Source of the DNA: an uncultured bacterium
GTDB taxonomy: Bacteria > Patescibacteriota > Microgenomatia > UBA1400 > PJMF01
DNA length: 62,864 bases
Reading direction: 5' to 3'
Assembly (NCBI GenBank): GCA_903959355.1
Contig: CAJBWJ010000025.1
Span: forward strand, 1-62,864
Positions within the stretch are counted from its first letter, which is position 1, and every line of letters begins with the position of its first letter. The notes under the pieces were generated by a model, which searched no databases, was not told where the DNA came from, and worked only from the letters and a program-made list of their open reading frames with translations. The translations under genes were made by a program, and so were the position numbers. Below, piece by piece: positions 15,465-55,468 of the stretch.

Positions 15465-15483
15465 GTTTCCTGATTATTTAAAT

Positions 15484-36400: not shown

Positions 36401-39192
36401 ATGTTTTCTGAATAATCTGCCTTAAACTCTTCATTAGCTTTATTGGCATAATCCACAGGATCGATAAGAGTAATATCCTGATTGTCTGTATACATGCTTT
36501 GATTAATTGCAGCTTGATTCATTTGACCAGCTGCATACATCGCTCCAGCCTGAGTCATCACTGCTCCAATATCTTCTCCCCAATTTTTAAATGTTTTAGC
36601 AGTGTAATAGCCAGAAGTAGCAGGTTGATAACTGTAATCAAGTACACCCATATTGCTGGCTCCTGTTAGAGCTATATTAGAAATTCCAGTATCAGCTGGA
36701 CCGGTGTAATCTAAATATTTAAGGAGAATCTTCTTTCTTTTCTTACTGGTCGCATAGTTAGTAGCAATATTTTGTGCCACATCAACACCAGCTACTTGAG
36801 AACTTAATTGATTAAAAGTTAAGCCAGCAGTTTGACCAAAATTTAAACCCATTTCTTCTGGTGTAAATTCACGATTTATGATGTTGTCTGCCATCAAAGC
36901 ATTGCCATAAGACATGCCCCAGGTGTAATCGCTAAGCGCACCTCTATTTTCTGTAGCATAAGAAAAAGTTTGGGAAGCATTAAAAATCTTGCTTGCTTCA
37001 ACAGCTGTTGAATAAGAATCCATTGCCTGCTGCTGATTGTCCAAAGTAGCACTGAAGTTTTGAGCTACTGCTGAATCTTCACCCAAAAAAATAATAGCAC
37101 TAGCGCTGTCAGCTGTTTGAGCCATGGCAAAATTAGCAAAAGCTAAATCCCAGAAACTCTGAGTCTCTTGTGTTTTATTTTCAGCATAAATTTGATTTGA
37201 ATAGTTAACGGCTAGATCTGGAACATTAACTTTAGGATCGCCTTGATAAATTTGATCCAGCATTAAAGAAATTTTGTCGGTAGCATTTTTAGAATCAATA
37301 TTACAGTCTGGAACATTCAATTCCTTACAAACAGAAGTCAATGAACGCCCTCCATCTATCGCAAAATTAGAAACAGCTTCATTGAAACGATTTGGTAAAA
37401 CAATTTGACCGTAAAGTTCATTGCCTGCTTCTGAACCATAAATACTAGACAGCAGCAGTTTTGGATCATCTGGTACCCAAGTTCCATAGCTATTCGCTGA
37501 ATCACTATTTGAATAATAATTCTTCAAATAAGACACATCCTGTGTGTTGGCATAAAGACTTAAAGCAACTTGAGAATTATATTTAGCAATTTCTTTTTTC
37601 AGCCACTCTTCAGTCACACTTCCTTCTAGAGTTTTGCCAGTATAAAGAGTGTAAAGATTAGATAAATCATCATAAGAAGCAGCTTTTCCTTGATTATCAA
37701 TGTATTGACTTGTTAAATTTTTCTCCTCAGCAGCAGTTGTTCTAGCAGCGACAATTGTAGCTGCTTCCTGTTGAGCTTGAGTTGTAGAAGTGCCAGAGAA
37801 TTTAGAAAGAAGAAGGGCTAGAACCTGTGCTTCAGATAAATTTTTAAGCTGGTCAGCAGTGATAACTCCAGCAGTAATAGCAGCACTCTTCAAACCGTTA
37901 ATATCTGTGCTACTACCATTAACATAGTTTTGATACTCAGTATTTAATTTATTAAAATCTTCAGTTTGTTTGGTTGTTTGTGCTGGAGTTTGATCGGTGG
38001 TCTGACCTGCAGCTTGAGAAGGCTGAACAACTGGTGCAGCATATTTAGCACGATCAGCATTGAGTTGTGCTGGATCAATACCAAAAGCACCAAGAATTCC
38101 ATTTACATTACCGTACTTGGTGCTTGGATCATAGCCAAAAATTGCCTTAAATTGTTCTGTAGCAATTCTATTCAAATCGCTATCACTGCCAGCTACCACC
38201 AAAGTAGAATACATTTTGTTAACAGCAGCATTTAATGTCGTTTGCTGAGAAGTGGAATCATTAAGCTGATCTAGAACTTGATAGCGATTAGCTAAGTTAG
38301 GATCATTGATAATTTGCTTGTTAAAATCAAAAATTGCTTGCTCATTAGAATTAAGTGAGCCCTTACTAGTCAGAGCAGCATTCTCTGCTGCTGCTTGTTG
38401 CTGAAGAACAGAAGCGTTGGTTAAAGCTGATAAAATTGCCTGTGCTTTAAGAAGACCAGCATTAGCTGCATTAGGATCATAAAGTGAACCAGCAGTAAAA
38501 CTCACTCCATAAGTTTTTTGATAAAGATCTTCTAAGGCTTTTACATCACCATTTGTTTTGTATAGATCAACGGCAGTTTGCCAATCTTTGTAAGGAACTT
38601 CAATTTTTTCCAAATGAGCGTAACAATAATCACCAGCAGTATTAGTACAACCAGTGGCGCGGGGTGGAACAACCAGATAACCATTAACTGTTGCGCCATA
38701 AGCGTAACAAGTATTGCCTAGAGCTACACCTTGTCCATTACAATCTTTTCCTAGGTTTTCAGTAGAACCAACTACTTTAGAAACATTCTCGGCTCCAAAG
38801 CTAGTGCTTTCATAAACCTTCTTATCTTCAATATATGGATAATCATAACGACCTGAAGCCAAGATTATTTTCCCGCCAGCTAGCTCATCTCCAGGCATAT
38901 AACAAAAACTGTTCATCCACATACCACCACCACAGCCGCTCTGAGAACTAGGACGAGTTCCAGTGTAAGTGGTGCTAATAATTCCTTGGGTGTTTAGATT
39001 GCTGCTTGGAGCGGTGGTAACAGCAGGAAGCAAGCCATTGCAGTAAGGATTACTTACAGGACAGGTTCCACTAGCTTGTTGACGAGTATCTTGATTGCTT
39101 TTGAGTAGAATAAAACCAGCTGCGGTAGAGATACACAAAAAAAGAAATAACAACACAGAAAAGAGATAGCGTTTCTTCTTTTGAATCAGCAT
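15484..39192 (-). CDS. giant multidomain membrane/surface protein, 7,902 aa
   Basis: Single uninterrupted frame of 23,709 nt from ATG (39190-39192) to TAA (15484-15486). The N-terminus MLIQKKKRYLFSVLLFLFLCISTAAGFILL is a signal anchor. Several catalytic motif sets are listed as separate sub-features. Confidence 0.85.
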   Translation of the reverse strand: MLIQKKKRYLFSVLLFLFLCISTAAGFILLKSNQDTRQQASGTCPVSNPYCNGLLPAVTTAPSSNLNTQGIISTTYTGTRPSSQSGCGGGMWMNSFCYMPGDELAGGKIILASGRYDYPYIEDKKVYESTSFGAENVSKVVGSTENLGKDCNGQGVALGNTCYAYGATVNGYLVVPPRATGCTNTAGDYCYAHLEKIEVPYKDWQTAVDLYKTNGDVKALEDLYQKTYGVSFTAGSLYDPNAANAGLLKAQAILSALTNASVLQQQAAAENAALTSKGSLNSNEQAIFDFNKQIINDPNLANRYQVLDQLNDSTSQQTTLNAAVNKMYSTLVVAGSDSDLNRIATEQFKAIFGYDPSTKYGNVNGILGAFGIDPAQLNADRAKYAAPVVQPSQAAGQTTDQTPAQTTKQTEDFNKLNTEYQNYVNGSSTDINGLKSAAITAGVITADQLKNLSEAQVLALLLSKFSGTSTTQAQQEAATIVAARTTAAEEKNLTSQYIDNQGKAASYDDLSNLYTLYTGKTLEGSVTEEWLKKEIAKYNSQVALSLYANTQDVSYLKNYYSNSDSANSYGTWVPDDPKLLLSSIYGSEAGNELYGQIVLPNRFNEAVSNFAIDGGRSLTSVCKELNVPDCNIDSKNATDKISLMLDQIYQGDPKVNVPDLAVNYSNQIYAENKTQETQSFWDLAFANFAMAQTADSASAIIFLGEDSAVAQNFSATLDNQQQAMDSYSTAVEASKIFNASQTFSYATENRGALSDYTWGMSYGNALMADNIINREFTPEEMGLNFGQTAGLTFNQLSSQVAGVDVAQNIATNYATSKKRKKILLKYLDYTGPADTGISNIALTGASNMGVLDYSYQPATSGYYTAKTFKNWGEDIGAVMTQAGAMYAAGQMNQAAINQSMYTDNQDITLIDPVDYANKANEEFKADYSENMKNDLYSNYIANANKAGINQVDQATYEQFLTDPEIQRSSQQLDFERLSKVVAPVVAAPVLTAMLISGVGAPAVLGIASSAFSLYQGAGMKAQALEIQRIDIESRENAVVQSYIENGADEVTIEKVKTDLSAQVDALNQQGNMMLANSAVAAMTSVGGLLTSAAGAVNAGATANVLATSGQVLTKAGQVSGIAMNSYNAVNSGISSYNSFQEGNIGGGIMSGISSFVAASGVAGNTFGLLGPTSYTNKIDYVLDAMNVPAGAAVDAQQVAQACYGSSGAFSEKDCTNAWIGLALSAGQNVSQIASSRKSYLADTAAAKAGIETAHVVDIQKQIDAIDAEVLALNGPNKGMREGLQINDLQAQRSNLVAQAEGINPNFRIAGNDNSTENYMASSVRVASDLETQLKDSAEAGKAAEAKYAADVEAARIAGKAEVANYLDQAEVARKTAQTEKEAYLAGQIEIFKEGPNAIAAVRDQITAIDEQITKRGVLLPESEVADLQQKRTALVADLENLTKSLSAVDSLKTQNEALLSVAKKNEAFSEYENLLKNDVEKASLVKQYAPDNEQVTKYQTDLEANATKVKLETDETKRLASIAALQDSLAKVTALESQKQALLIGLGVDSSDQVGRKIDGLSAEINRLNNQGVLNEADTARVVDLETQRNDLQVEMVKFDAIDAEIGGIRQIADAVSADSRPIWKKITDFFSPGKSTREAYYKSLDLTREAETLRAKLAGVGADSADAKAFREQLADANRQLRDQQYLLAQAAANPSKGMRQTITDFVSGIKTRGQIADLKDAAKKMGESNLNIAEAIVAKQAEIERLKTEDATANQVEITRLEGEVTELLKTARNPLKGNGAVIAVDKSGDFTKYVVTDAGLAAGIKQKQLDILNTELQAFETFRRSSETQADVKKNGGPFKIYSGTDTFKDQDVFLLAEVEAFGAGRRGTVFGALPGMGKTDVVMPFNILLKQRLTGQPQFVVFPEAKLAKPWTTGGENPIPNKAFIDYVESQFGKGSVVIIKANDTSVDPIAIANAKFVITTKDVAFDLQNTDTKLGLNLRSKWRNSFVHADEVDWTFNPNENYKLSGTQIALRDKAEFGLYADAQKQVLGIDENGNLLPGRGLNTLNDLISKLSNSKSVPEGIARTSDGKGGKFASPELEKQVLGEWLGTWGGQSKIPGLDMSADTKTIRQQINDYLTRGTDADVHQRRAEMAMINETVNFLSRVPGEDYGPTSNKKTVGGVEEVVSSIAPREQGRTSGRSYSAVAESLLYNSLGARIMGANGQVDINKITVGEGGSEINYALLMLESRGFSLYTGTPETVAKLYKMAYGIELNVFTDSAVDSSIARFNAPPAGTNSRVFTNLQDQMTARLADGRNQVFINMASGLRSNEAALANLVKTITDTGAPYQKILLVGANGELIEYQISGGALLRTGEFASTEAMNARTADLDKTSERYVKFYEYGAHVGVDTANNVSLSRAIGLCNGCDQTTFSQGINRVRVQVTKNSTGAYEVKHAPIDIVWLDAPSVLRDPSIENFTADMSRLQTINEALAEVSFKETLLKNSVDGTFAELIDLARNGKDGFLGFGSYKTNLDIVSQLEAAQQKWKETTGMNYMLGSDDMTAQAKLEKTASQVGAAYAELTRLLANSGEPAKLLAKRADGAIGNNPVKLAFSGDEGYQVLGENPSYRQIVDLINQSSKHLESVNIAFTNKSSAPEVVGNEMARAASEAQINSKTSTDGNIDGGAAPVRPGSDGPDANGGGAGLVRPAGDTTTNNGTNNTRNTTTNNNSSNQSSQNNSSRNIGFATFASNLWNGAVDEEKLLAENAAAVEDNKTAIAAGYQAQIEKLIEQLGAATEPAEKDAIDQQIKNLKAAQADQTAIDAAAKAKTTEQLADNYRTDGIKSFFVNSERGGTFTVSAASLANLPVAWSDSFNEQAFMTDNKAEIDNTALQIKADALLEKAAEMQAVADEINKLNQELQKTKANKKQQELLAAMEALAKQVDVIQAENESINQKDFTAEAIPVVKEKYADDVKYVQIGLSTHLSNLRSGVSRLLASIPERAGGLNVSADRALKAWNEAKALLENKKENLAPVADAGTQSVPEIQNNKTSSVSLSERIKQLSDRAKQLWQKTAGFRQAVSSLASKLKTVPTNRIAILSPEEKTQLDTLAKDYGDINAEVKYLNSQISDAKAILKDLEQKIKLSGEINQELENIKNNTTQLQAKLKELQGQRDEFLIRSKEISNQATALSGQIKPAFTKEQQAAAAQKIRDKVVVELDKNINQSLRTLALSLSRENNKDLAAVRMQITQTIKGEFARYKLQPALSYVVGEFSYLPEFKNDPEGADGYIRDILGTVTEDFFVARHTATNRLQISLQEDEVTRRDIITIGDVHGDWKALVGLLSGSSTNESGERISKPLLDSNEKWIGGPTDYLVLTGDLFDRAPAGVSAAETAERIMNLQKQAGNFADGTPRVKVLIGNHDINAIFAYWRMKDILANRPNVDKNTAAEAGSFTGMNPGITPEEVIYLFDHPDLANWVMNLDAMTIDDGVLRFHSDTTAYTAYGKTVQDVNNRIRSIMSNQSGLKDLELLLHDLTKREGFDLAGDVSYFLETYNAEHLVHGHSETAVPKDSRVTNVDGALSGSYDSKYGKGKSRGRTFTQTVPGIEKLNVAIAAGLPKQQLGVILARPLSDVLIEANEQSESSRQKLSQLRSEFENISAQLGQINKQIEKNNLDTDAAANSGSKLQDQLSVLNVANLLSAQANTNQTITGLEDGLLQSTALLQKAKALLDAQREVSNFLNSFRQAGIQVKPFLLGNEALSDVSVLSQKLLDLVLEAFNQHKFTRNAFILNISKITPNFVSLNGLLSIADRTIDLSAKIQAALDDASKLLEETNRKKELIGKINPIMEELKAKGAILEYDLAAMTADELEKALVDLQQMNESYVNENDQINNSPEDGIALSALRDKAVQIGAESSLVNSWKTEIDANQWLNDQQRKFTKISELFKSLGIDVNIVTVGDYEKQLDILSNLIIEIDALEKSSGLDYVFFQGSTEDILGMIIINQDSASFKDVNDFKSKASNAVKSNTKLIDFVKKYDPVFSKLRQPGMIGSLSLREINEALRTVDRATKFFQNSKLENKKWWTEIKDFAKQLTDVKANLTSLRSELKQLAQSYLTTTKKKFNYNLDAGEISLREQIQQIKSLINTDETSSSNQGVDYNLFLVAQNNLALKNLTKQQILDLAKATNLPLNTYSETKLYEDIYGILLDSSYRKDIVQIIAGVEEVVPGSDLDPRVSVEINQQSGSSMEQSIYEAVANSIDAIPGIGNSIGKFGKGIKQILAWLDTNGQDNVEVLTTSAGSESVLYLRVSKNESGYNISLKKLSKDDAKRDFAFDLDHGTKIKLSVKDDIAKLNSELNDVKTISQEKIVGGVRNKYSFVPGLKIFTSFGGDDYKLINGYNKKRSIIPYSKGGIVNDPKDNVVYVKANSNSIEIIDNGTGMNEALLSRMFVPKQGSKVTEPLNEQQIEQEKTKLGLIFEELGNDEEKRIIFSRNREGIVSFVLPSNKVEGSLVSGNLLLELANLVEVPESRDSLIINSKSESGKMSNFEVAIDDMVDRIVSNSELQSLEKIKYINTIIAGIEFLEGGNPSYKKTINSIKGATKDKIKDILVSLRKDGYLIFTDEASFSSIAIDRNKTVFLNKDVFDWNESYYLKNYLGAKIVSNITVGGASKLPLVFVDFDDNATSLARAFNGAWHLNTAIDRLPVIKNGSMVVLPKNVYAFARFIELNDLRSQRELNTEEQQEFLDLAERIDIITADQVVTDYEIGSVEQNLRIEDVEIITKDELNVKVDEGNIDSDIVNKFLANDFSSSFVNPSTNTNYKKTLQPFTGAPTGEILVDQNGGVLDVKSGALILESGAEAGVYSYNSRGSNYYTKTAYDQNEFSTLQFSNEYTLLLKEEIEFTSSSFLKSKQKNAIIIENGKKHFYSFYLNKTIGYGGYSIGFDDIVSGPNGLFYFGIINGQIVEVFFPQMIDDPRFLTSEFDTFKENLIESLNKNDFKVWFTINDPPGPYSIDKFRGAEIRLDFPKGRALFDAGGNFVFTADPTAFIAPTLNESNLKDQGFIEIENDKLSSYIYRTVTNENQKKDIQMINFSKSASLSHLDDAYGVPRIISYGTAGVNITLNYGGKVTSRIVSKATMDPEGRFLFVGESPNMEIFDLRNGYSELVSIDPKFTKGDITVVSDGDAIVIKSNIYGTNQTSFVLLKDKNNKQVVITFHGEINQTQLGRIIDDLKSGADTKESLETKGLTEFNQINGVNKADILNKIIGENQENRDRYIQEFRNIYMPILNSVPEEHRQEFISSIKQMYVEQEEYLKSQVLSYATNGSEIDLSNGPIDMAIKNANKIPNMQAFLEDFNKRYGSLEPYDKSYAYQHLSLSLFSFMKADHTILDIKTSDLSLSAYITPFLRQKSIDMNRACRPLIEALENEGYGYTQILHISAFFDEIAGREWSDPKIVSQQIAKIMALRSGERKKFFDLIVGSFKSNIRLLDIYLRRYSKEDIDNIPADLRSIFIFLSRDVDQLRLDDREQATGRDINLPEEGLQVSQIIKMNQAKGSLSQPVNNLEELVTGFATNVPKIDENLESEVLKNIAVQREGDAHTAEITQNAKDATRGRAGKLVVDFYLRVRNGIREYVEEAYDNGTGALDEIALLIPKSTKSIGQQIDLAGFFGTGKYTIFEGVDKVEIVSVNEDRAYQFFFEVKKNDAGNPEKLVLVGFKDLAGENLPTGVTVRRIKYAENTIPEFEAISSRQSWKMFAGMSQNDNFKIYIKAADGKEEELIVEGKKLLADVDLNLFDKDTKTVVNKGKIQIYETKDMPLQIIDRNGLRVKEIKDEYLKLIPKDLRKYVSDLHLNIQIPLPLIRNRGSFENESYYLPQIQKYLAIAFFKALAQKAITQTNPQFVFTSLPLDWYSSPNYSYAFDLGKDVELIGIIKKINDGKIDELSTEELQSLINQEEMDWKNGILKLILNLNVTTDDSKKTTSMLLKRLQVQAEIAKKSNELGTKSRVSKEMEMAKELGIEVEQVSEQPLSEVDTARVAQAASMVNAYVGMDSFFKDPEKYVAKDLTASEEFARKKILEIAKTFGIEEVAFVEGVDGFAGAFSGYDNSNASSTKKTFYLQRSLAGNYTRVSVHELAHYLEKLVSNPEFDGVTNQFYVPDAGVFTHSSVGTFAEAMKYVSAKSLLNYDPTSLGSRLFEFKLALQRINGVDSLLVQSLIKSINLLDVNKLNDAITYLESLFQGQSLNTAPANLLDEAGSYLNSLCSDCDLVREQTKAGVELADSLLAEADVFSKQAVAARTAGNQKQAVDFDKQAAAKKQAAIKQLDDIRSQVIYDHGWENQCVQLYLNAWVGAREALIRQTLADTNSAIKSVYEATQFIRQTLADGFMITKAVGLPGLTTPVQNIPLDAQAKTDFEEMTQKLKKWAEFKEDAGNLTEELVAGELKTLKDVQLQKSSQEYIGDSLRIGIREIVRQMRTNFISDKQQEQLELALTEIQPVIAAFEVEGSIGSVSLSELNRNLARVVDGLDYLMTSDFNQDNILEKINAFADTLQKRSDYMSKLRTNAETLISEYITLTGQPYTFDSSSASAAKLIMQADKLTSLIEAKKQEISGVAPVAIAPVADKKEFKPAETLKSLGNGLNNFRKSLGRNAAAAAVGFGTFGTGLYLWAKKAAAKRFASKINLPKLNIRKPRNIVAAVLSAMVVASIVYFSVVPQGTKVNPVDNKPAIVQTVEAPQAQAPVEQAPVVEAPAVVAQPPVVEKAPTVVAPPAVNAIPTQQSSLSDQEIKAIEQEITGILEEAPGEWGAYIHKIGSTEAGYSYQENKSFHAASTIKVPVAMAVMRYFESQNISLEQALQIAPKGQDRIIAQLMKAMLIQSEEEATSILVDFVNASTQKDMSAYFEEIGINGILYYTEDVDGYARSASAESMAIILENLYANKSGLSKTSTDYILNLMKTYSKDDDFRIGAGLTAEIKAKMAHKTGTVLEDDIFTASDVAIVTLPNGDAYTIVIYNALDNKTQYNVTPGIITEISKLAFKIYSPTVVSQSDSQGDISTVSKVNGSLSTAAPDSLTASFFNSSKTNKVLDAENIPELTFVNSNNQKVGFYFAEYSQSINSKDLSAYQSAFEKVAPFYSYLQTDQIRLEKMEPGTIDGGESYYGISGSEILSNGQWLGSIKFTSDYETKSHLQKILSNIGLSDKASIAALIHEIGHIIKYEKDANGNYVKSRLLTSFDNNFYGSTKGSTELPPTDYAKAYYSYKDAGGDQHDRAVTEDLADVIALYSVAPEYLKQVAPLRYEFIDAIAHGTNPGSFQGEMSNADSLAFNDLCSDCAQVREATKNGVQISDNLMAEANALNEQALIAETAGDQTKAADLAKQAEAKKKAAIKQLGDTRNQVVNAHGMQNQCVQLYLNAWINTREAMIRKTRADVDSAIDSVYRATILAEEMLNSKKMSIREGGIFGFGSTVKYKDLTSDEVEDVADLLFGNVSKDIEGLQSWAFFKEGKDGKFERIIISGSLLELQNTVISSGISSIRVFLRDFAISTRQRIFFDELVEKISSLTKDSKKIEEKVDVSPSVSPSVSVAIDPSVSPSPSVSLSPSAVTPSPSVAPSTENDDLISGFWKKILLGIGGLSIGLGVFLTIYSQTINAQLETVSNQTSPTQIVETISPTLTASPSPSPSPSVSLSPSPSPSPSVSLSPSPSPSPTSIAAQPPVEVKTVILNTALPDEYVVEDPYAKYKYMPDGTLMLIDRDEWNPIDTSIFPEYATNRNVNDYLKTLQLFNVDESLRYRRASDTTFCNIYVSDVTSALGVYIPRWKNGEKMTATTTLEWLEEPLAQDLGWQSTSALKAQEMANQGIPTIAITRGHIAMVAPGTGQTNEQSGVFYPSSAQAGRLNFDSESPIEDNSVEIGFAGAISNGQEIEYFYNSSQYELVQPVENQ
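15487..16180 (-). other. giant protein: C-terminal Cys/His hydrolase-like domain (CHAP or NlpC/P60-like, tentative)
   Basis: TTFCNIYVSDV (Cys 15910-15912, residue 7761) and ITRGHIAMVAPG (His 15706-15708, residue 7829). The 68-aa Cys-His spacing resembles papain-fold cell-wall amidases/peptidases. Confidence 0.4.
16185..16590 (-). other. giant protein: Pro/Ser linker, TM helix, Pro/Ser linker
   Basis: VSPSVSPSVSVAIDPSVSPSPSVSLSPS..., then the TM helix ILLGIGGLSIGLGVFLTIY (about 16380-16440), then ASPSPSPSPSVSLSPSPSPSPSVSLSPSPSPSP. Confidence 0.7.
16205..16276 (-). repeat. perfect 36-bp tandem duplication inside the Pro/Ser linker
   Basis: GACGGTGACAAAGAAACACTTGGAGACGGAGATGGC occurs twice back to back (16205-16240 and 16241-16276), encoding SPSPSPSVSLSP twice. 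Confidence 0.9.
16984..17322 (-). repeat. giant protein: CxxC helical module, copy B
   Basis: LCSDCAQVREATKNGV...NQCVQLYLNAWINTREAMIRK...SVYRA. Same three Cys positions as copy A. Lies 119 aa after HExxH-2; copy A lies 129 aa after HExxH-1. Confidence 0.8.
17400..17900 (-). other. giant protein: zincin-like metallopeptidase motif 2
   Basis: AALIHEIGHIIKYE; HEIGH at 17665-17679 (residue about 7172). Confidence 0.5.
18180..18950 (-). other. giant protein: class A beta-lactamase-like / penicillin-binding serine hydrolase domain
   Basis: SxxK as AASTIKVP (Ser 18805-18807, residue 6796), an SDN-position SEE, and KTG as HKTGTV (18349-18357, residue 6946). The Ser-to-KTG spacing of 150 aa is close to class A enzymes. 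Confidence 0.65.
19156..19345 (-). other. giant protein: pair of TM helices
   Basis: AAAAAVGFGTFGTGLYLWA, then the basic loop KKAAAKRFASKINLPKLNIRKPR, then IVAAVLSAMVVASIVYFSVV. Followed by a Pro/Ala/Val/Gln-rich linker (18960-19140). Confidence 0.65.
20170..20508 (-). repeat. giant protein: CxxC helical module, copy A (protein-level duplication)
   Basis: LCSDCDLVREQTKAGV...NQCVQLYLNAWVGAREALIRQ...SVYEA. About 62% identical (70/113 by hand alignment) to copy B. Confidence 0.8.
20700..21100 (-). other. giant protein: zincin-like metallopeptidase motif 1
   Basis: VSVHELAHYLEK; HELAH at 20881-20895 (residue about 6100). Confidence 0.5.
22150..22500 (-). other. giant protein: GHKL ATPase domain (sacsin/Hsp90/MORC-like Bergerat fold)
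   Basis: Canonical order and spacing: EITQNAKDA (ExxxNxxD, 22459-22482), 37 aa, DNGTG (22357-22371), 23 aa, GFFGTGKY (22264-22287). Confidence 0.65.
25870..26530 (-). other. giant protein: GHKL-like motifs, atypically spaced
   Basis: N-box-like EAVANSID (ExxxNxxD, E at 26515-26517) and G1-box IEIIDNGTGM (25960-25974). They are about 180 aa apart instead of the usual 30-50, so the assignment is uncertain. Confidence 0.3.
28510..29290 (-). other. giant protein: PPP-family metallophosphoesterase (Ser/Thr phosphatase/ApaH-like) domain
   Basis: Complete ordered motif set: GDVHGD (29254-29271), GDLFDR (29110-29127), GNHD (28993-29004), HLVHGH (28573-28590). Confidence 0.75.
31900..33650 (-). other. 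giant protein: SecA-like DEAD/SF2 ATPase module
   Basis: Walker A GALPGMGKTDV (33544-33570), followed by LLKQRLTGQPQFVVFPEAKLAKPW (compare SecA ..[22 protein letters not shown]). Walker B HADEVDW (DEVD 33199-33210), then ..KLSG as in SecA DEVDSILIDEARTPLIISG. Degenerate C-lobe (GAHVGVDT, QGINRVRV). Confidence 0.6.
35650..36270 (-). other. giant protein: hydrophobic Gly/Ala-rich segments (candidate membrane-embedded region)
   Basis: VVAPVVAAPVLTAMLISGVGAPAVLGIASSAFSLY (about residues 975-1010), then MMLANSAVAAMTSVGGLLTSAAGAVNAGA and GGGIMSGISSFVAASGVAGNTFGLLGP. Confidence 0.45.
38580..39192 (-). other. giant protein: signal anchor plus Cys-rich N-terminal domain
   Basis: KKKR followed by a 21-residue hydrophobic core. 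Then 8 Cys in four close pairs (CPVSNPYC, CGGGMWMNSFC, CNGQGVALGNTC, CTNTAGDYC), suggesting a disulfide-bonded extracytoplasmic module. Confidence 0.55.
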
Positions 39193-39307
39193 TTTATGGT
39201 CGGAAAATAGCTTTTTTACACTATTTTCACTTACTCCAATTTACACTAAAAAGCATCTGGTAGAAAGGACCAAAAGAAGAGAATTTTGAGTAAAAAAAGC
39301 GAACAAT

Positions 39308-41125
39308 TTAATCGTGGCTTTTTGGGTCAAAAGAAGTAGCTAAAAAGTAGCTCCAAACCCCCGCCAAAACAAAGAATAAACCGCCCAAAAGTAGTGCAAC
39401 TGTCGTGCCCACTGAACCAGAATTGTATTGACCGCTATTAGTGGCCACAATTGCTGATCTCGTACTAACAACGGCTGCAGAAGGAGATGCTGTTGGAGTT
39501 GCAGAAATAGTTGGAGCAAAAGGATTGCCAGAACCATAAGGAATACTTGGCACTGGAGTTGGTGATTTAGTGACCGTTGGGCTTGGAGTCTTAGAAGGAG
39601 TCTTTAGATCTGCAGCAGCAGCAATCTGTCTAGGCGCTTTCGGATCAACCGTAAAATTATAAGTTTTCGTAACTTCTTTACCAGATACAGGGTCAATGTA
39701 TGTATAACTAGCAGTGTGTTCACCAGGTTCAAGATTTTTACCAAGACTGGCCACATCTAGCACCATGTTACCATTCGCATCTGTTTGCACTGTTTCATCG
39801 ATCGCAGTGTCAGAATGAATAACCACTCTAATCATAGTATTAGCTGGCAAAGTGGCCTTAATTTGAGGTTGTGAAGTTTGAATTGTAGTAGCCGAAGCTT
39901 CTTTAGTTTCATCGAGTGCACTTAAATTTAAAATTTCTGGAGGAGCGGTGGTTGGAGCAACTGTTGGTATAGCTGCCACAGCAGTCGAAGTAGAATCATT
40001 GACAGTTGAATCTTTCAAAGAATCAGTAGAAGCGCTCGCTTCTGCAGTTAGATTGCCACCTTCACTAGCATCGCTGCTTTCAGTAGACTCCATCAAATCA
40101 GCAGACGAAGATGTTGTCATGTCTGCTAATAATTCAGCTTTATCAACTGCTGGCAAATCATCAACTGAGGCTGAAGCACTAGCAGCCGAATCATATTTAT
40201 CCAAGATTAAATTAATCACTGGCTGAGCAGTTGCGACAGTTGTTTGCAAATTGTTAGTTAGATCGAGTTCAATTCCTTGAGCTTTAATGTCAAGCATGCT
40301 TCCGTCAGTCATCGTCGCATAATTACTTTTTTCCGTATTAAAGGCGTTAGCCAAAGAAATTCCCCAACTACCAGATGATTTGACCAAACTGGAAAGAGCT
40401 CCAATTCCATCACTGTTAACATAAACTATTGCTCCTTCTGCTGGAGTCCCATCATTTTTGAGAATAGTTCCATAAATAGTTTGATTGTTGCTAGGAGATT
40501 GACTTGGTTTCGCAGCAGTTGTCAAATTATATGGCTGTCCTTCATTGTCAAAAGAACTGGAGCCAGTGCCCAAAACATAAAAGTAATTTTTTCCAGGATC
40601 AAGATTTCTGACAGTAACGTAATGCAAACGATAATCTTTTACCACTCCAGAGAGCTGGTCACGATCGTCACTCGCTTGTTTATCTAATGTTTTGTCATCT
40701 GTGCCATATTTGACAAAAGCAATGGTGCTCTCATCAGTGTAAAAAGAGATGGTAAAAGTTTTGTCAGTGACATTGCTAATACGAATATTTTTTGGAGTAG
40801 TTTCTGGAGTAGCGCGAGGAGCAAAAACGCCAGTACCTTGACCAAAAAGCAATACTCCTGAGATTAAAGCTACAAATAGAATCAACAAACCAAGTATTGT
40901 AGGAATCTGCTTTTTTGAGCCACGCTTATTCTTACCAAACTTCATTTTGATGTTTTTTTCACTAAAATTAGCTGATTCAGCAATTGGCTTTGTAGCTTCT
41001 TTTGTAAGTGGGGGTGGTGAAACTTGAGTTTGAGCAACCACTGGAACATTATTTAAAGCAGATGGCATCGGCACATTGCTTGAAGGAGTTGGCTTGCTAG
41101 TTTGTATGTTTGATTGCACCTGCAT
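39308..41125 (-). CDS. surface protein anchored by N- and C-terminal TM helices (FN3/PAP-N-like, CarboxypepD_reg-like and Ig-like modules, tentative)
   Basis: 605 aa. TM1 is IPTILGLLILFVALISGVLLF. FN3-like NIRISNVTDKTFTISFYTDE..YGTD..RLHYVTVRNLDPGKNYFY. IYGTILKNDGTPAEGAIVYV. An acidic Ser/Thr-rich linker, a Big-like module and a Pro-rich stalk. The C-terminal TM is TTVALLLGGLFFVLAGVWSYFL. Confidence 0.65.
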   Translation of the reverse strand: MQVQSNIQTSKPTPSSNVPMPSALNNVPVVAQTQVSPPPLTKEATKPIAESANFSEKNIKMKFGKNKRGSKKQIPTILGLLILFVALISGVLLFGQGTGVFAPRATPETTPKNIRISNVTDKTFTISFYTDESTIAFVKYGTDDKTLDKQASDDRDQLSGVVKDYRLHYVTVRNLDPGKNYFYVLGTGSSSFDNEGQPYNLTTAAKPSQSPSNNQTIYGTILKNDGTPAEGAIVYVNSDGIGALSSLVKSSGSWGISLANAFNTEKSNYATMTDGSMLDIKAQGIELDLTNNLQTTVATAQPVINLILDKYDSAASASASVDDLPAVDKAELLADMTTSSSADLMESTESSDASEGGNLTAEASASTDSLKDSTVNDSTSTAVAAIPTVAPTTAPPEILNLSALDETKEASATTIQTSQPQIKATLPANTMIRVVIHSDTAIDETVQTDANGNMVLDVASLGKNLEPGEHTASYTYIDPVSGKEVTKTYNFTVDPKAPRQIAAAADLKTPSKTPSPTVTKSPTPVPSIPYGSGNPFAPTISATPTASPSAAVVSTRSAIVATNSGQYNSGSVGTTVALLLGGLFFVLAGVWSYFLATSFDPKSHD

Positions 41126-41197
41126 AAAACGAATCGAGACAAAAATGTCCTTACATTAAATTTACATGATTCAGAGCCAAGCAACAAGTATTAGACT

Positions 41198-41701
41198 TCA
41201 ATTTTGTGGTCCAACAATTGACTCAAGTGGAATCGGTATAAAATCCACATTTTTATTTGCTGATCCCGTTGCCTGAGGAGATTGATTTGTTTGATCTGTT
41301 TGAGTTGGCTGAGAAGATGAAGGAGAAACAAGTGGTGATATTTGCTCTAATTGCCCAGACTCTGTACCAACCAAGTCTTCAAGCGGAGCAATAATATCTA
41401 TCAACACTGGATTGATGTCAGTATTTTTTTTATCAAGAATATAAATAGGAAAATAGCTCAACTCATCAGCTGAATAAATCCTTTTGCCAATAATTCCTTC
41501 GAAAGCAGCTGATTCTAACCTCGGCACAAATGATTTGGCCAAATCCCTCAATTCTGGAGAGACTGAACTTGTTTTAGATGTAGCAAAAATACTAGTCAAA
41601 ATCCATAAAACAACCATCACAAATACCATAATGCCAATCCACAAAAGTTTTTTATTGCGGCGCAGCTTAGCTAGTTGTTTTTGAATGTCACTATTGTTCA
41701 T
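41198..41701 (-). CDS. hypothetical TM-anchored protein (in the position of a PilP-like component)
   Basis: 167 aa. N-terminal TM (LLWIGIMVFVMVVLWILTSIF), a small domain, and a Ser/Pro/Gln-rich tail. The start overlaps the pilO-like stop by 4 nt. Confidence 0.55.
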   Translation of the reverse strand: MNNSDIQKQLAKLRRNKKLLWIGIMVFVMVVLWILTSIFATSKTSSVSPELRDLAKSFVPRLESAAFEGIIGKRIYSADELSYFPIYILDKKNTDINPVLIDIIAPLEDLVGTESGQLEQISPLVSPSSSQPTQTDQTNQSPQATGSANKNVDFIPIPLESIVGPQN

Positions 41702-42318
41702 TTGGCATCTTCGTTTAAATAATAAGGTAAATTAACTCTAATAACGGCTGTTAAATTTTTTTGATAGCGATTGCTGCCTAAACTAAAATTAATTTGATCG
41801 ACAATCATCATTCTCCTAGAAAGCATTAACTCATCGATAAATTTACGAATTTTCATATAATCACCAGCCAAATCAACATTAAAAGTTAACAATTGTCTGG
41901 TAGCTTTATCTGAAGTAGCAATTGACAATTCATTTGGCATTGAAGAAATAGTAATTCCTTGAATAACCAAGTCATTTTCACTAGCAATTTTTTCTACTAT
42001 TTTCAGGCTTTCTACTAATTGAGCTTTTTTTGGAATAGCTTCATCAAGTAAATAAAATTGTGAACTAAATTTTTGATACTGACTTTGAGCTGTGTTTAAA
42101 CTAGCTATTTTTTGAGCAAGTTGTTCATCTAGAGTTCTTTTGTCTTCAATTTCTTTGATTAATTCGGACATTGTTTGCAAAGTTGGCTTGATAGCAAAAA
42201 TAGCAAAAAAGATCACTGCAAGAATTGAAAACACCAGCTCCAAAGAAACTCTAGCCACCGGATTCTTGTAGAAATCAAAAAGAGCGTTTTGAATTTGTTC
42301 TTGTCTACTTTTTGGCAT
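41698..42318 (-). CDS. PilO-like type IV pilus assembly protein
   Basis: 206 aa. N-terminal TM, a coiled coil (KRTLDEQLAQKIASLNTAQSQYQKF), then a ferredoxin-like C-terminal half (TFNVDLAGDYMKIRKFIDEL..MIVDQINF). This is the PilO architecture. Confidence 0.55.
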   Translation of the reverse strand: MPKSRQEQIQNALFDFYKNPVARVSLELVFSILAVIFFAIFAIKPTLQTMSELIKEIEDKRTLDEQLAQKIASLNTAQSQYQKFSSQFYLLDEAIPKKAQLVESLKIVEKIASENDLVIQGITISSMPNELSIATSDKATRQLLTFNVDLAGDYMKIRKFIDELMLSRRMMIVDQINFSLGSNRYQKNLTAVIRVNLPYYLNEDAK

Positions 42319-42877
42319 TTAAGTTAATCTTTGATCTAATATCAAAATTAAATCCAGAAGTTTTCTCTCCTCTTGATTCAATTTTATTAACACTGACTTC
42401 AGTAAAATAAGGACTAAGTTGCAAGTTATTAACTAAGACATTTAAAGCAGTTTGCGAAAGAGCTGATCCAGTAAAATTGATTGCATCAGGTCTAACCAGA
42501 AGCGTCTCAAACACAACATTATTTGGAATATTGTCATTTAAGATTGGAAAAATATCTACTAAATTAGAATCTTGTTTAAATTGCTGATAATCATCTATTT
42601 GTTTTTGTATAAAACGAAATTTTTTTTCCAAATCGCCATAAGAAGCAATTACTCTTTCCTTTTGATTGAGGGCTGAATTGAGATCTGTGACCATACGATC
42701 AAGAGTAAAACGCGAAGCGAAACTCAAAATAACAATCATTTCAGTAAAAATAACAATGTAGCGACCAACAGAAAGAGCCCATTTTAAAAAACGACCAAGA
42801 ATAGTCTCAAAAAAAGGATCTTGAGGAACTAGATTGATAGTAATGTCCAATTTCTTATTGGCAGGCCTTTTTGACAT
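42305..42877 (-). CDS. PilN-like type IV pilus assembly protein
   Basis: 190 aa. N-terminal ITINLVPQDPF resembles the PilM-binding INLLP motif. It is followed by a TM helix, a coiled coil and an alpha/beta domain. Confidence 0.6.
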   Translation of the reverse strand: MSKRPANKKLDITINLVPQDPFFETILGRFLKWALSVGRYIVIFTEMIVILSFASRFTLDRMVTDLNSALNQKERVIASYGDLEKKFRFIQKQIDDYQQFKQDSNLVDIFPILNDNIPNNVVFETLLVRPDAINFTGSALSQTALNVLVNNLQLSPYFTEVSVNKIESRGEKTSGFNFDIRSKINLNAKK

Positions 42878-42908
42878 CTATGTACATGATAGAGGTTTAA
42901 GTAAATTT

Positions 42909-44615
42909 TTACAATTCATTATTCTCAATAGAATTGTCCAAAAGCACTTCTTCGGAGTCTTCAATGGCTTCTTTCCATTTTCCAAATTTACCCAAAATAT
43001 TGCGGAAATATGTTAACTCTTTAACATCGAAAAGTACGGAAAAATACACATAGACTAGAGTTGCAACACTGGCTGTAGAAACAGTTAAGGCGATCAAATC
43101 AATAGTTTTTGAAGTATCAAAAACTACTTCGTCGAGAATTTTGAAAGGCAAATAAAGGAAAACTGCCATAAAAAAACTAGAGGCTAAAATCTTCATTTGT
43201 GGTATCCAAAACTCTTTATTATTGAAACAAGTTATTTTTTTGTTTAGTAAAAATAAAGATAGAATTAATTCCAAGAAAGCAGCCAATGAAATCGCCATTC
43301 CCAAGCCCAAAACATCAAGTGAAAAAACGTAAACTGAGAGATAGGAAATGATCAAATAAACAGCAGCCGTAATTAAAGTAATAATGAATGGTGTCTTTGT
43401 ATCTTTAAGAGCATGAAAAGCTCTAATTAAAAGCTGGACCATTGCCTGGGCAGTGATCGAAATAGCAATAATTGCTACTACCTTGCCAGTTAATACTGTT
43501 GTTTTCCACGGAAAGTTATAGGTACCAAAAACTAAACGAACAATTGGAACGCGCAAAATCAATAATAAAACTGAAGCTGGCATAGCAAAAAAAGCAATTT
43601 GATTGAGAGACTGAAGTAATAAGCGATTGAATTTATCACGATCCTCCACTGCTGATTCCTCAGATAGAAAAGATAAAGATGCCTGAGAAATTGGCACACC
43701 AAAAAAACGAATTGGCAAAGTCATTAAACGACTTGCTAATTTAACCACCACAAAACTAAGATCACCAATAGTAGTGGCGAAGAAGCCCATCGCTAAGTTT
43801 TGAAACTCAGTAATACCAACCGTTAACAAGCGAGGCGGCATTAAAGAAAAAAGTTTTTTAACTGAAGGAAAATTAAGATTAAAATCTAACTTAAATCTAA
43901 AACCCATTTTCCAAACCAAGGGCAGCTGAACGGCAGTGTGCAAAAAAGCACCAATTAAAACACCCAGCCCAGCAGCATAAATTCCAAAATACTTAGCCAA
44001 AAACACAGTGCCGAGCATAATCCCTAAGTTATAAAAAATTGGAGCAAGAGCTGGAGCCACAAAACGCTGATATGACTGCAAAATTCCAGTTAAAAAGTTT
44101 GAAATAGCAAAGAAAAACTGGGCAAAAAGCATCAAACGAGTTAGCTTGACAGCGATGATGAGTTGGTCTGGAGTAAATTCCTTTCCGGTGCGGAAGCCAG
44201 TAATTTGTTCTGCATAGATAAAAGCCAAAAGAGAAAAAATGAGAAAAATCAAAAGAACCCAATTCATAACAATTGAAGTAAATTGGAAAGCTTGCTTTTC
44301 ATCTTTTTTCTTAAGTTCTGCAAAAAGAGGAATAAAAGAAGCTGCTAAAGCCCCCATCACAATCAATTGAAAGATCATGTCTGGAAGCTGGAAAGCTACC
44401 TGAAAAGCCTCATAAGCTTGTTGAGATGCATTGGTGTTAAAAAATTGATTAATTAGAACTCTTTCACGCCATAAACCAAAAATTGAAGAAAAAACATTAG
44501 CCAAAGTAATAACTACAGCAGCAGAAAGAATAGAATTTTGCTTCTTTTCTAGCCAACGCCCGTTACTGTTGAATATTTTGGCAAGTGAGATCACGATTAA
44601 GAAATTATAATTCAA
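42909..44615 (-). CDS. murJ: lipid II flippase MurJ (MviN family)
   Basis: 568 aa polytopic (about 14 TM) protein with a MurJ-like N-terminus (ILSAAVVITLANVFSSIFGLWRERVL). The listed start is a TTG, so the exact start is uncertain. Confidence 0.8.
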   Translation of the reverse strand: MNYNFLIVISLAKIFNSNGRWLEKKQNSILSAAVVITLANVFSSIFGLWRERVLINQFFNTNASQQAYEAFQVAFQLPDMIFQLIVMGALAASFIPLFAELKKKDEKQAFQFTSIVMNWVLLIFLIFSLLAFIYAEQITGFRTGKEFTPDQLIIAVKLTRLMLFAQFFFAISNFLTGILQSYQRFVAPALAPIFYNLGIMLGTVFLAKYFGIYAAGLGVLIGAFLHTAVQLPLVWKMGFRFKLDFNLNFPSVKKLFSLMPPRLLTVGITEFQNLAMGFFATTIGDLSFVVVKLASRLMTLPIRFFGVPISQASLSFLSEESAVEDRDKFNRLLLQSLNQIAFFAMPASVLLLILRVPIVRLVFGTYNFPWKTTVLTGKVVAIIAISITAQAMVQLLIRAFHALKDTKTPFIITLITAAVYLIISYLSVYVFSLDVLGLGMAISLAAFLELILSLFLLNKKITCFNNKEFWIPQMKILASSFFMAVFLYLPFKILDEVVFDTSKTIDLIALTVSTASVATLVYVYFSVLFDVKELTYFRNILGKFGKWKEAIEDSEEVLLDNSIENNEL

Positions 44616-48635: not shown

Positions 48636-48669
48636 AAAAAGGGTAATTTGGCGTAAAAAAACGCTTAAT

Positions 48670-48785
48670 TCTGGCCTCGACCTATCTTTGCAGGGGGAGA
48701 ACCCCCAACTATTGTCAGCGCTGAAGCGTTTCAAGACTCTGTTCGGGATGGGAAGAGTTGGTACCACCTCGCTCTGGAGACCAGA
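48670..48785 (-). rRNA. rrf: 5S rRNA
   Basis: 116 nt on the minus strand: TCTGGTCTCC...CCCATCCCGAACAGAG..GAAACGC..TAGTTGGGGG...GAGGCCAGA. The ends pair as helix I. Confidence 0.9.
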
Positions 48786-48967
48786 ATTAAACGTTTTTAG
48801 ACGCACGTGTACTGCGATTTGTTCGCGGTGCACAAATAATATGTTAATTAGCGATTTTTGTTCGCTAATAAGTGAAGCTAACTGCTTTATATCGAAATAT
48901 AAAGGTTAGTAGTAAAAGATAAATCTTCCACTACTAACCTACTCAATAAGACCTTTGAAAGAACTGA

Positions 48968-51903
<2,936 letters not shown>

Positions 51904-52125
51904 TATCATTGAAATGTTCTCTTTACTCAGTCTATTGAGTAACAGTTAGTTTATGGCCTAAATAAATTAGACCATAAAGTTTCTTCACTTATTAAAGAAC
52001 AAATTTGATACTTGGATTATCTCCAAACATCAAAGTCTAGCAATTTGCTAGTTATTAGTCTCTAGAAATTCCGGAAGGAAAATCCAAAGTCTAATAAGCA
52101 GCAAACAGCTTATATATAGTTTACT

Positions 52126-52202
52126 TGGTGGACCCTAAGGGGCTCGAACCCTTGGCCTCCACATTGCAAATGTGGCGCTCTAGCCAACTGAGCTAAGGGC
52201 CC
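52126..52202 (-). tRNA. tRNA-Ala (anticodon UGC), CCA encoded
   Basis: GGGCCCTTAGCTCAGTTGGCTAGAGCGCCACATTTGCAATGTGGAGGCCAAGGGTTCGAGCCCCTTAGGGTCCACCA. It folds as a cloverleaf, has anticodon loop TTTGCAA, and carries the G3:U70 Ala identity pair. Confidence 0.95.
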
Positions 52203-54787: not shown

Positions 54788-55468
54788 TTATTGAGCATCT
54801 TCAGATACTTCTTCCTTATATACAACAGCACCGGAAAACATTTTAGCGACTTTTTCACACCACTCAAGTAACCATTTTACACTGTACTTGGTACTTTTAA
54901 ATTTTGCCTCTTCTTTACTTTTTACAGTAATTGGCAGAACTACTACTGGCTTATCAGAAATTGCCACTGGAGAAGTGACGGTAGCAGCTAAATTATTTAT
55001 TTCTTTCTGTTTCTCGGCAATCATGGCTTGCTCGCGCTGCTCTTTGGTTTCTTTGGAAACTTCTTGCAATTCTTTTGATAATTCAGCCATTTCTGGATTT
55101 GGAGCTGACTCGACAGGCGAAATACTTTCAATTTGTTTAGAAACTTCCTCTGTAGCAGCATTTTCTGCACTTGCCTGCGCTTGATTAGGCAAAACTTCTT
55201 TTGCACGACTAGAGACTTGAGGAGAATCTTGTCCTGTTTGAACAGAATCATTTCTACTAATAAGAGTTTGCGTAATTAACTGATCAAGTGTGTCCAAGTT
55301 TTCATCTGCATTTTTTTCTTGTGGACCAGGAAAAACTACCTGCGTATTTGAGGTTTGAGGTAAAAATTTACCAATGGTCGGATATTTACTGGCATTAGAA
55401 CCAGAAAACATTCTTCGAAAAGATTGATCATTTGTCACGCATTTATCATAGCGTTTTTTTGTCACCAC
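54788..55468 (-). CDS. hypothetical low-complexity (Gln/Glu/Ser-rich) protein
   Basis: 226 aa. The listed start is GTG and overlaps the upstream gene, so the true start may be the internal Met (RRMFSGS). Conserved-looking C-terminus KYSVKWLLEWCEKVAKMF. Confidence 0.45.
   Translation of the reverse strand: MVTKKRYDKCVTNDQSFRRMFSGSNASKYPTIGKFLPQTSNTQVVFPGPQEKNADENLDTLDQLITQTLISRNDSVQTGQDSPQVSSRAKEVLPNQAQASAENAATEEVSKQIESISPVESAPNPEMAELSKELQEVSKETKEQREQAMIAEKQKEINNLAATVTSPVAISDKPVVVLPITVKSKEEAKFKSTKYSVKWLLEWCEKVAKMFSGAVVYKEEVSEDAQ

Follow-up and report, generated by a model that had tools for sequence, protein, structure and literature searches.

Candidate Phyla Radiation (CPR) bacteria, or Patescibacteria, account for a large part of the diversity of bacteria. 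They live attached to host cells, a lifestyle to which their mostly unknown surface machinery is central. Here, we analyze a stretch of DNA of 62,864 nt from a Pacebacteria-like CPR genome (contig CAJBWJ010000025.1 of assembly GCA_903959355.1), which is called the window at its full length. It contains a string of six genes on the minus strand: murJ, genes for a PilN-like and a PilO-like protein, genes for a 167-aa protein (tm167) and a 605-aa protein (p605), and a giant gene encoding 7902 aa. The window PilN is 88% identical to that of GW2011_GWF2_38_9. The core of this string is a four-gene module, pilN-pilO-tm-p605, which is widespread in CPR bacteria. In this module the PilN/PilO alignment pair, otherwise familiar from the type IV pilus (T4P), is held in a fixed and previously undescribed partnership with two obligate new partner families, tm167 and p605. 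The features of the string and of its immediate surroundings are as follows, numbered by window position.

42909-44615, minus strand: murJ, lipid II flippase (TIGR01695; PF03023, 7.5e-72)
42305-42877, minus strand: PilN-like bitopic protein (PF05137)
41698-42318, minus strand: PilO-like bitopic protein (PF04350)
41198-41701, minus strand: tm167, small bitopic protein of 167 aa (no Pfam or NCBIfam match)
39308-41125, minus strand: p605, predicted surface protein of 605 aa with two membrane anchors (Pfam, AlphaFold2 model, Foldseek)
39236-39265, minus strand: conserved non-coding motif TTCTACCAGATGCTTTTTAGTGTAAATTGG (comparison of giant loci)
39202-39230, minus strand: hairpin GAAAATAG...CTATTTTC, after the conserved motif and ahead of the giant start codon
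15484-39192, minus strand: giant gene, 7902 aa, a single uninterrupted open reading frame (ORF)
39067-39165, minus strand: N-terminal anchor of the giant protein, residues 10-42, with motif LLKSNQDTRQQAS (motif search)
14115-14870, minus strand: SIMPL/DUF541 gene (PF04402, 4.7e-24)

The coordinates of the six ORFs were confirmed, and the close packing reported in a preliminary description of this DNA was reproduced upon re-measurement: murJ and pilN are separated by 31 nt, pilN overlaps the pilO-like gene by 14 nt, the latter overlaps the tm167 gene by 4 nt, and gaps of 72 and 115 nt precede the p605 and giant genes, respectively. The naming of the PilN-like and PilO-like proteins is likewise sound, as both score above the Pfam cut-offs (46.6 bits against 22.8 for the 190-aa PilN-like protein with PF05137, and 27.2 bits against 22 for the PilO-like protein with PF04350). 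The giant gene, which had been called the terminal gene, is indeed the last of the six, although the co-oriented SIMPL/DUF541 gene follows 613 nt downstream. MurJ is a near full-length member of its family (TIGR01695, 276.1 bits against a cut-off of 235.55, residues 29-535 aligning to positions 2-502 of the 506-position model). The ORF is listed from a TTG, but its true start is probably a GTG near 44594, about 20 nt further in, because the TIGR01695 match begins at residue 29 and a TATAAT sequence overlaps the TTG. In the 605-aa ORF, the first 60 or so residues lack conservation, and the true start of p605 may be M20 or M61 rather than M1, in which case the 72-nt gap would widen to as much as about 250 nt. 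A scan of the window for promoters and terminators returned chance-level counts, with neither a promoter site nor a canonical terminator in the two gaps (41126-41197 and 39193-39307).

How far is this gene order shared? Two sets of loci of about 20 kb each were assembled: a close set, in which 87 loci surround genes for close relatives of PilN (metagenome contigs and 80 GTDB species representatives), and a distant set, in which 80 loci surround genes for more remote members of this PilN subfamily, which were found by phmmer, the locus search using a six-sequence alignment. Gene presence was assessed by tblastn with the window proteins, and a locus was regarded as informative when enough downstream sequence was available; individual loci are cited below by their L numbers. 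The preliminary description had proposed gene-order conservation as a check on the whole string. The order pilN, pilO, small transmembrane (TM) protein, p605 was found in 102 of 102 informative loci of other genomes (71/71 close and 31/31 distant), which exceeds chance, while the giant gene turned out to be confined to a subclade and murJ to change its orientation. The conserved loci span two CPR clades with PilN identities of 35-90%. An ORF for a small TM protein between pilO and p605 was detected in 67/71 close and 29/31 distant loci, and the median spacing in the close set is 1 nt for pilN/pilO, -4 nt for pilO/small TM and about 100 nt for small TM/p605. The outer flanks of the two clades differ completely, one having GH18 and the penicillin-binding protein (PBP) PBP1 and the other a flavin adenine dinucleotide (FAD) oxidoreductase and large membrane glycosyltransferase-like proteins. 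Since the module remains intact while its outer flanks differ between clades, the core consists of four genes.

The position of murJ is less strict. It adjoins the module in 106/112 loci in one orientation or the other: immediately upstream and co-oriented in 78/79 loci of the close, Pacebacteria-like clade, and adjoining but divergent in 27/33 loci of the distant clade. A UvrD-like helicase gene takes its place in the remaining loci. Being co-oriented in one clade and divergent in the other, murJ is thus a persistently linked neighbor rather than an obligatory operon member. The linkage of murJ to pilN has outlived an inversion between the clades.

The PilN-like protein belongs to a distinct subfamily, for which an exhaustive phmmer search returned 873 representatives; among the 150 listed, all have about 180-210 aa. 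The N-terminal INL(V)P motif ascribed to it in the preliminary description is present as ITINLVPQDPFF, the start of the protein reading ...DITINLVPQDPFF. The window PilN has INLVPQDPF, N-L-x-P-x-D-P-F is invariant across 14 homologs, INLLP is kept in PilN relatives of 30-40% identity, and INLxP is invariant over the range of 35-100% identity. In published structures, an INLLP-type motif of PilN sits in a pocket of PilM, a protein structurally similar to FtsA (PMC5805733). An AlphaFold2 (AF2) model of the PilN-like protein consists of a disordered N-terminus, a TM helix continuing into a long coiled-coil helix, and an α/β ferredoxin-like ectodomain. Its best matches in the Protein Data Bank (PDB) by Foldseek are PulL/EpsL/XcpY (5hl8, 2w7v, 5n7l), Thermus PilN (4bhq), PilO and PulM/EpsM; a search of PDB sequences with a PilN profile gave no significant match. 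The PilO-like protein also matches GspM (NF040576, 25.3 bits, 1e-5) below the cut-off of 60 and, very weakly, DivIC (E = 0.046). The TM and juxtamembrane segment of PilN (residues about 38-61, region of 42740-42760 in the window) is unusually conserved as GRYIVIFTE[LM]xVIxxFxSRFxLDRxxTDLN, and a polar E/Q within the membrane helix is held across 30-100% identity. To our knowledge, such an intramembrane polar residue is not a canonical feature of PilN.

The two partner proteins are of a different nature. Besides its TM helix, tm167 has a conserved ectodomain segment of about 45 aa (LAKPLxPxI...KRxxSxEELxxFPIY) and a variable tail that is acidic or rich in proline and threonine (PT-rich); no Pfam or NCBIfam family matches it. 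The p605 family comprises 565 proteins, every one of them labeled as CPR. At its N-terminus, p605 has a TM helix. Next come an FN3-like domain (Pur_ac_phosph_N), one that is CarboxypepD_reg-like and a Big_13-like β-sandwich, followed by a conserved PYGSGNPY segment and a C-terminal TM helix. Three domains are modeled by AF2 with a predicted local distance difference test (pLDDT) score above 90, with disordered linkers between them. Foldseek searches with this model retrieved FN3/Ig arrays and adhesins, with neither a secretin nor an enzyme fold, and one distant family member has sub-threshold matches to S-layer glycoproteins. With FN3/Ig-type folds and two TM helices, p605 is therefore predicted to be a surface protein anchored at both ends, not a secretin or an enzyme. 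Neither partner resembles the PilP-type lipoprotein or the secretin that accompany PilN and PilO elsewhere, tm167 being a TM anchor with a short conserved segment and p605 an array of FN3/Ig folds.

The preliminary description noted that the window lacks pilM, pilin, PilB/PilT ATPase, PilC and secretin genes, and this was borne out. Pfam searches of all window ORFs of at least 120 aa gave no match to the PilM, PilB, PilT, PilC, PilD or secretin families, no class III pilin motif occurs in the six frames of the window, and no pilus gene lies in an extra 9 kb or so on either side of the window contig. In a total of 2.13 Mb (the window plus 169 loci), there is no T2SSE Walker A, His-box or class III pilin motif, and no ATPase, PilC, pilin or PilM is encoded within 10 kb of the module in any of 151 distinct loci. 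The upstream neighbor of pilN is murJ or the UvrD-like helicase gene in all loci, never pilM. As the module is conserved and always lies away from pilus ATPase and pilin genes, it is a unit distinct from a canonical T4P operon, as had been proposed. The further proposal that it might extrude the surface proteins finds nothing in its favor, there being no ATPase, platform protein or pilins at the module. Searches for literature on pili of Pacebacteria or Microgenomates yielded nothing.

The giant gene is one unbroken ORF of 23.7 kb in a genome of 35% GC. Its distribution was read from the fetched loci alone. Homologs with 41-71% identity occupy the same position in L003/4, L008, L009, L010, L014, L016 and L018, and a decayed remnant (150 + 795 aa) persists in L015 together with a SIMPL fragment (14232-14519). 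The gene is absent from L001/L002/L012 (L012 being CP011212.1, the closest complete genome, 853 kb). About 90 other species lack it too, and so do L017, L019 and every locus more distant than these. At loci without it, p605 is followed directly by a convergent GH18-PBP pair or by other genes. With the giant limited to a subclade (the window, seven loci and one remnant), it is not a conserved member of the string; such a pattern is consistent with a subclade ancestor that possessed the gene and with vertical inheritance thereafter, interrupted by repeated losses. The SIMPL/DUF541 gene, which is missing in the giant-less L001/L012 and survives as the fragment beside the remnant in L015, appears to have been gained and lost together with the giant. 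Insertion of the giant as a mobile element was considered and rejected: no integrase was seen, the GC content is like that of the rest of the window, and the same site is occupied in eight species, besides the one decayed remnant. A 16-nt exact direct repeat (ATTTTGAGTAAAAAAA, plus strand) brackets the giant gene at 14787-14802 and 39283-39298, one copy lying just past the stop of p605 and the second within the 5′ end of the SIMPL ORF. The repeat could be a chance occurrence in AT-rich DNA or a recombination scar.

Two domains are recognizable in the giant protein, a Metallophos domain at residues 3304-3541 and a class A β-lactamase-like domain at about 6773-6977. It also has two HExxH motifs and further TM segments, and the rest is unannotated. 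Pfam scans of six segments of the protein detected no significant family besides Metallophos and Beta-lactamase2, and neither SecA nor a helicase in residues 1785-2384. The latter residues (window 32041-33840) form the best-conserved stretch, 47% identical to L003, with no sequence match in Pfam or PDB. When they were compared with 5.8 billion proteins through a word index, no scoring match was obtained, not even the giant itself; very long proteins may be missing from that index.

A non-coding motif of about 35 nt, CCTTTCTACCAGATGTTTTTTGTAGTAAATTGGA, lies upstream of the giant ATG; the window copy (39236-39265) ends 43 nt before it. The motif is unique in the window, where none would be expected by chance, and is conserved in 8/9 giant-bearing loci, L018 being the exception. 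Among all loci, its 13-mer core occurs only at giant genes (L003 13491-13503, L008 13590-13602, L009 13527-13539 and L010 13615-13627). A hairpin follows the motif; other giant loci have a hairpin at the same place with a different sequence, which is weak evidence, and the fold of the p605-giant spacer is not unusual (z = -1.3). The motif is likely a promoter or operator of the giant gene, and motif and hairpin together could be a promoter/operator plus a structure in the 5′ untranslated region. This arrangement suggests that the giant is regulated separately from the module.

Is there, then, any link between the giant and the module other than position? The N-terminus of the giant protein has a basic stretch (KKKRY), a 22-aa hydrophobic helix and then LLKSNQDTRQQAS, which contains the motif QDxRQQA. 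The core of this motif, Q[DE]xR[KQ][QE]A, occurs 50 times among six-frame ORFs of the window and the 169 loci and stands directly after a hydrophobic run in 50/50 cases; within the window, the giant alone carries it. A slightly looser anchor pattern was used for positional counts. It gave 42 motif ORFs, 35 of which are located at most 1.5 kb past p605 and share its strand. In the distant set, this applies to 25/25 motif ORFs, counted from the p605 stop and found in 21/32 informative loci, and several further distant loci have degenerate variants of the anchor. In the close set, it applies to 10/17, which comprise the giants and the motif ORFs of L006, L055 and L085. The distant-clade gene that comes directly after p605, here called the fifth gene, abuts the stop codon of p605 or overlaps it. 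The anchors of the giant and of the fifth-gene proteins align convincingly (...IPLAVILVKQRQEIRKEA vs. ...GFILLKSNQDTRQQAS), p605 itself bears a related variant (e.g., GVFLVTQGQEIFLRASP in L147), and residues about 83-200 of the giant resemble stand-alone motif proteins of 390-470 aa in related genomes.

The motif proteins have no known domains. Searches of the giant N-terminus, the motif proteins and p605 against NCBIfam and Pfam gave nothing above cut-off, with sub-threshold matches to LPXTG anchors and S-layer glycoproteins only. No curated model of known sorting signals (LPXTG, PEP-CTERM, PGF-CTERM, class III, YSIRK) recognizes these anchors or the C-terminus of p605, and the motif string has no match in indexed papers. 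Since the giant shares its anchor with the genes directly after p605 of the distant clade, it looks like an expanded member of this fifth-gene class, and its position behind the module is probably not accidental. A stand-alone anchor-motif gene stands right after the 5S rRNA terminator in L017, L018 and L083. In L085 the motif is borne by a DUF11 surface protein (15112-16773). A second family of small proteins is found downstream of the distant-clade module (L096 14139-14747, L107 ~7786, L118 ~4562, L124 14199-15101). Its anchor, KKNWxxVLI...AVITAI[KR]LYQLRKQPVAPTAP, differs from the one above, is likewise conserved and is reminiscent of ...FAPRATPETTP in p605.

Elsewhere in the window are rpsT-lepA, which diverge from murJ, along with two class A PBP genes, GH18 and GH3 genes, 23S and 5S rRNA genes, and a gene for a VirD4/TrwB-like ATPase. 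The rRNA genes (48669-52202, minus strand) have one tRNA gene upstream of the 23S gene and no adjoining 16S gene in the window. The 780-aa VirD4/TrwB-type ATPase (DUF8128, DUF87 and TrwB_AAD_bind; 52436-54778, minus strand) is the last gene, on the downstream side, of a co-oriented run that includes small unannotated ORFs (54788-55468, 55961-56467 and 57634-58675), a DUF192 gene (55462-55959) and the GH3 gene (56464-57630). It keeps its relative position in relatives (L005 1-694, L007 1-632, L169 16027-18369) and may be part of a type IV secretion-like or DNA-translocation system. A 166-aa ORF (9920-10420, minus strand) has sub-threshold matches to an RnlA-toxin DNA-binding domain and an RNase LS-like HEPN domain, and its position, with the PBP gene on one side and a cytidylate-kinase-like gene on the other, is kept in relatives. 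In the compared loci, Wzy_C membrane proteins, similar to O-antigen ligases or oligosaccharyltransferases, recur near the module (L054 17225-19441, L104 ~2824, L111 ~12880, L169 6495-8642). Together with the DUF11 protein of L085, they hint at glycosylation of PT-rich surface proteins.

Starting from the observed gene order, family membership, motif linkage and distribution of the giant, we infer the following outline, in part by analogy with known machines. PilN and PilO would form the usual bitopic heterodimer, as they do in the assembly platforms of T4P and the type II secretion system (T2SS). The cytoplasmic INLxP peptide of PilN would dock an actin-like partner, PilM or a relative of it, encoded elsewhere in the genome. 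On the outer face of the membrane, the pair would join the small protein and p605 to make a scaffold that is close to the membrane and spans the wall. The place immediately behind the module would be reserved for genes of surface proteins carrying a signal-anchor that consists of basic residues, a TM helix and a juxtamembrane L-V/L-K-x-x-Q-D/E-x-R-x-x-A, of which p605 has a variant. The scaffold would recognize this signal-anchor, and the module would in this way recruit, position or retain surface proteins. In the present genome and its near relatives, the 7902-aa multi-domain giant fills the position; it would be an expanded, separately regulated member of this class, dispensable for the module. 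The T2SS platform recruits substrates anchored by an N-terminal TM segment, the pseudopilins, and the same logic is applied here to the anchor-motif proteins.

That the PilN/PilO scaffold is tied to anchored surface proteins is likely. To the whole reading, in which a four-gene PilN/PilO module with its p605 scaffold recruits anchor-bearing surface proteins and the giant is a dispensable occupant, we assign a probability of about 45%. Of the earlier idea that PilN and PilO had been recruited for p605 and the giant, the p605 half is supported by the invariant linkage of that gene to the pair; the giant half is weakened by its facultative presence and in part restored by the shared anchor motif, and extrusion finds no support. 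Several observations weigh against the recruiting scaffold. PilM was not found in the window and the loci of about 20 kb, and 52/66 loci of the close clade have no motif gene within 10 kb, so that the link to cargo is not obligatory or the cargo genes are dispersed. Given the upstream motif of its own and the 115-nt spacer, co-transcription of the giant with the module is doubtful. The fold of p605 is a generic one, and a Metallophos domain and a weak HATPase-like match in the giant are unusual for a purely extracellular protein. A bolder version of the same idea is unlikely: the module would be a T4P-independent platform that reads a new N-terminal sorting signal (TM helix plus L-V-K-x-x-Q-D/E-x-R-x-x-A) and installs surface proteins along with MurJ-dependent wall synthesis. 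If it were true, it would amount to a new protein-sorting system made of pilus scaffold parts, with cargo ranging from Cys-rich proteins of about 230 aa to the 7902-aa giant.

Could the module simply be part of an ordinary pilus? The PilN and PilO of the module would then be the only ones in the genome, with the rest of the machine encoded elsewhere, tm167 and p605 would be pilus accessories replacing PilP or a wall-spanning element, and the downstream surface proteins, including the giant, would be neighbors without mechanistic connection. Retention of the PilM-binding type of motif in PilN makes a PilM partner elsewhere possible, and T4P machinery genes including pilM are reported to be well conserved across Patescibacteria phyla (PMC11623550). 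Moreover, PilN and PilO cannot power anything by themselves, and the giant occurs facultatively, behind an upstream element of its own. However, cultivated Saccharibacteria group pilM, pilN and pilO with pilB and pilC, while 0/151 distinct loci here have a pilus gene within 10 kb; the present PilN belongs to a subfamily of its own, whose TM/juxtamembrane segment is unusually conserved; and the strict position of the anchor-motif genes is left unexplained. We regard this explanation as doubtful, though it is the main rival. The same peptide of PilN could instead dock FtsA or another actin-like protein, with PilN/PilO, tm167 and p605 working alongside MurJ and the neighboring class A PBPs as a bitopic scaffold on which peptidoglycan or envelope glycan is assembled, comparable to FtsQ/L/B or further bitopic coiled-coil proteins. 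The adjacency of murJ, which is maintained across the orientation flip, would be in keeping with such a role, as would the envelope genes around the module in both clades (PBP1 twice, GH18, GH3, Wzy_C-like proteins, glycosyltransferases and an epimerase), the structural likeness of PilM to FtsA (PMC5805733) and the weak DivIC match of PilO. Yet there is no similarity to divisome or elongasome proteins above noise, the anchor-motif genes are again not accounted for, and adjacency is weaker evidence than usual in the compared CPR genomes, which keep long stretches of gene order; a wall-synthesis scaffold is thus improbable.

This conservatism could also be taken further: where small genomes undergo little rearrangement, an inherited gene order might be all that PilN/PilO, p605 and the giant share, without any functional link. 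Pacebacteria-like genomes do share gene order across tens of kilobases, and no promoter or terminator call is decisive. But the module persists where all of its outer flanks have changed and murJ has flipped, its genes overlap in the manner of translational coupling, and the motif genes hold their position, all of which makes mere inheritance of order very improbable.

Comparison with known systems brings out what is shared and what is particular. With the PilM-PilN-PilO(-PilP) subcomplex of type IVa pili (Pseudomonas aeruginosa, Thermus thermophilus, Myxococcus xanthus), the module has in common the PilN and PilO domains, the bitopic coiled-coil/ferredoxin-like build, the INLLP-type motif and overlapping genes. 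It differs in that none of the 151 distinct loci has pilM, pilP, pilQ, an ATPase gene, pilC or a pilin gene, and in the fixation of tm167 and p605 in the operon, the linkage to murJ and the conserved TM helix with its polar E/Q. GspL/GspM of the T2SS (PulL/PulM, EpsL/EpsM, XcpY/XcpZ) provide the best structural matches to the PilN ectodomain and a weak match to PilO. Unlike in the T2SS, however, there is no fusion to a GspL cytoplasmic domain, the GspM score lies below cut-off, GspE, GspF, GspD and pseudopilins are missing, and the putative substrates are without the G/F-T-L-x-E prepilin motif.

Use of this pair outside pili has a precedent in the flagellar cage of Helicobacter pylori, into which PilM, PilN and PilO have been co-opted and whose operon for them holds no further pilus genes (Liu et al., 2024, PMC10823254). 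PilN/PilO heterodimers serve there as a peripheral scaffold of a non-pilus machine; the differences are that pilM is in the H. pylori operon and the organism demonstrably has no T4P, whereas the present locus has no pilM and there are no flagella. A giant behind such genes has been described as well. In Omnitrophota, giant genes are preceded by T2SS/T4P-like loci of more than 10 subunits including gspD, gspE, gspF and genes with class III signal peptides, and carbohydrate degradation and cell wall digestion have been proposed as functions of the giants (West-Roberts et al., 2023, bioRxiv 10.1101/2023.11.21.568195). Both cases have a very large multi-domain secreted or anchored protein directly after T2SS/T4P-family genes, with a wall-active domain (β-lactamase-like here). 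At the window locus there are only PilN/PilO-type parts, and any ATPase, secretin or pilin motif is missing. The giant, at 7.9 kaa, is smaller and also facultative, and the likeness drawn here is one of size, position and domain content. Closer in phylogeny, within the same superphylum, the Saccharibacteria strain TM7x encodes PilM, PilN and PilO with PilB, PilC, PilT, PilD and pilins (PMC11623550). PilN and PilO are common to both, but the pair described here stands apart from pilus genes and is joined to murJ, tm167 and p605.

The four-gene module defined here is strictly conserved. It makes use of pilus alignment proteins and stands, at the level of the locus, apart from all other pilus genes. 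An anchor motif common to their N-termini ties it to a class of surface proteins that includes a giant with wall-active and other enzyme-like domains. If the module belongs to a pilus, it names the missing envelope-spanning components of the pili of monoderm-like CPR bacteria. If it is independent, it would be a second reuse of PilN/PilO after the flagellar cage of H. pylori and a candidate for a new sorting pathway. Either way, the partner of the PilN peptide, the anchor motif and the PilN/PilO/tm/p605 complex are testable targets for approaching the cell surface of these bacteria.

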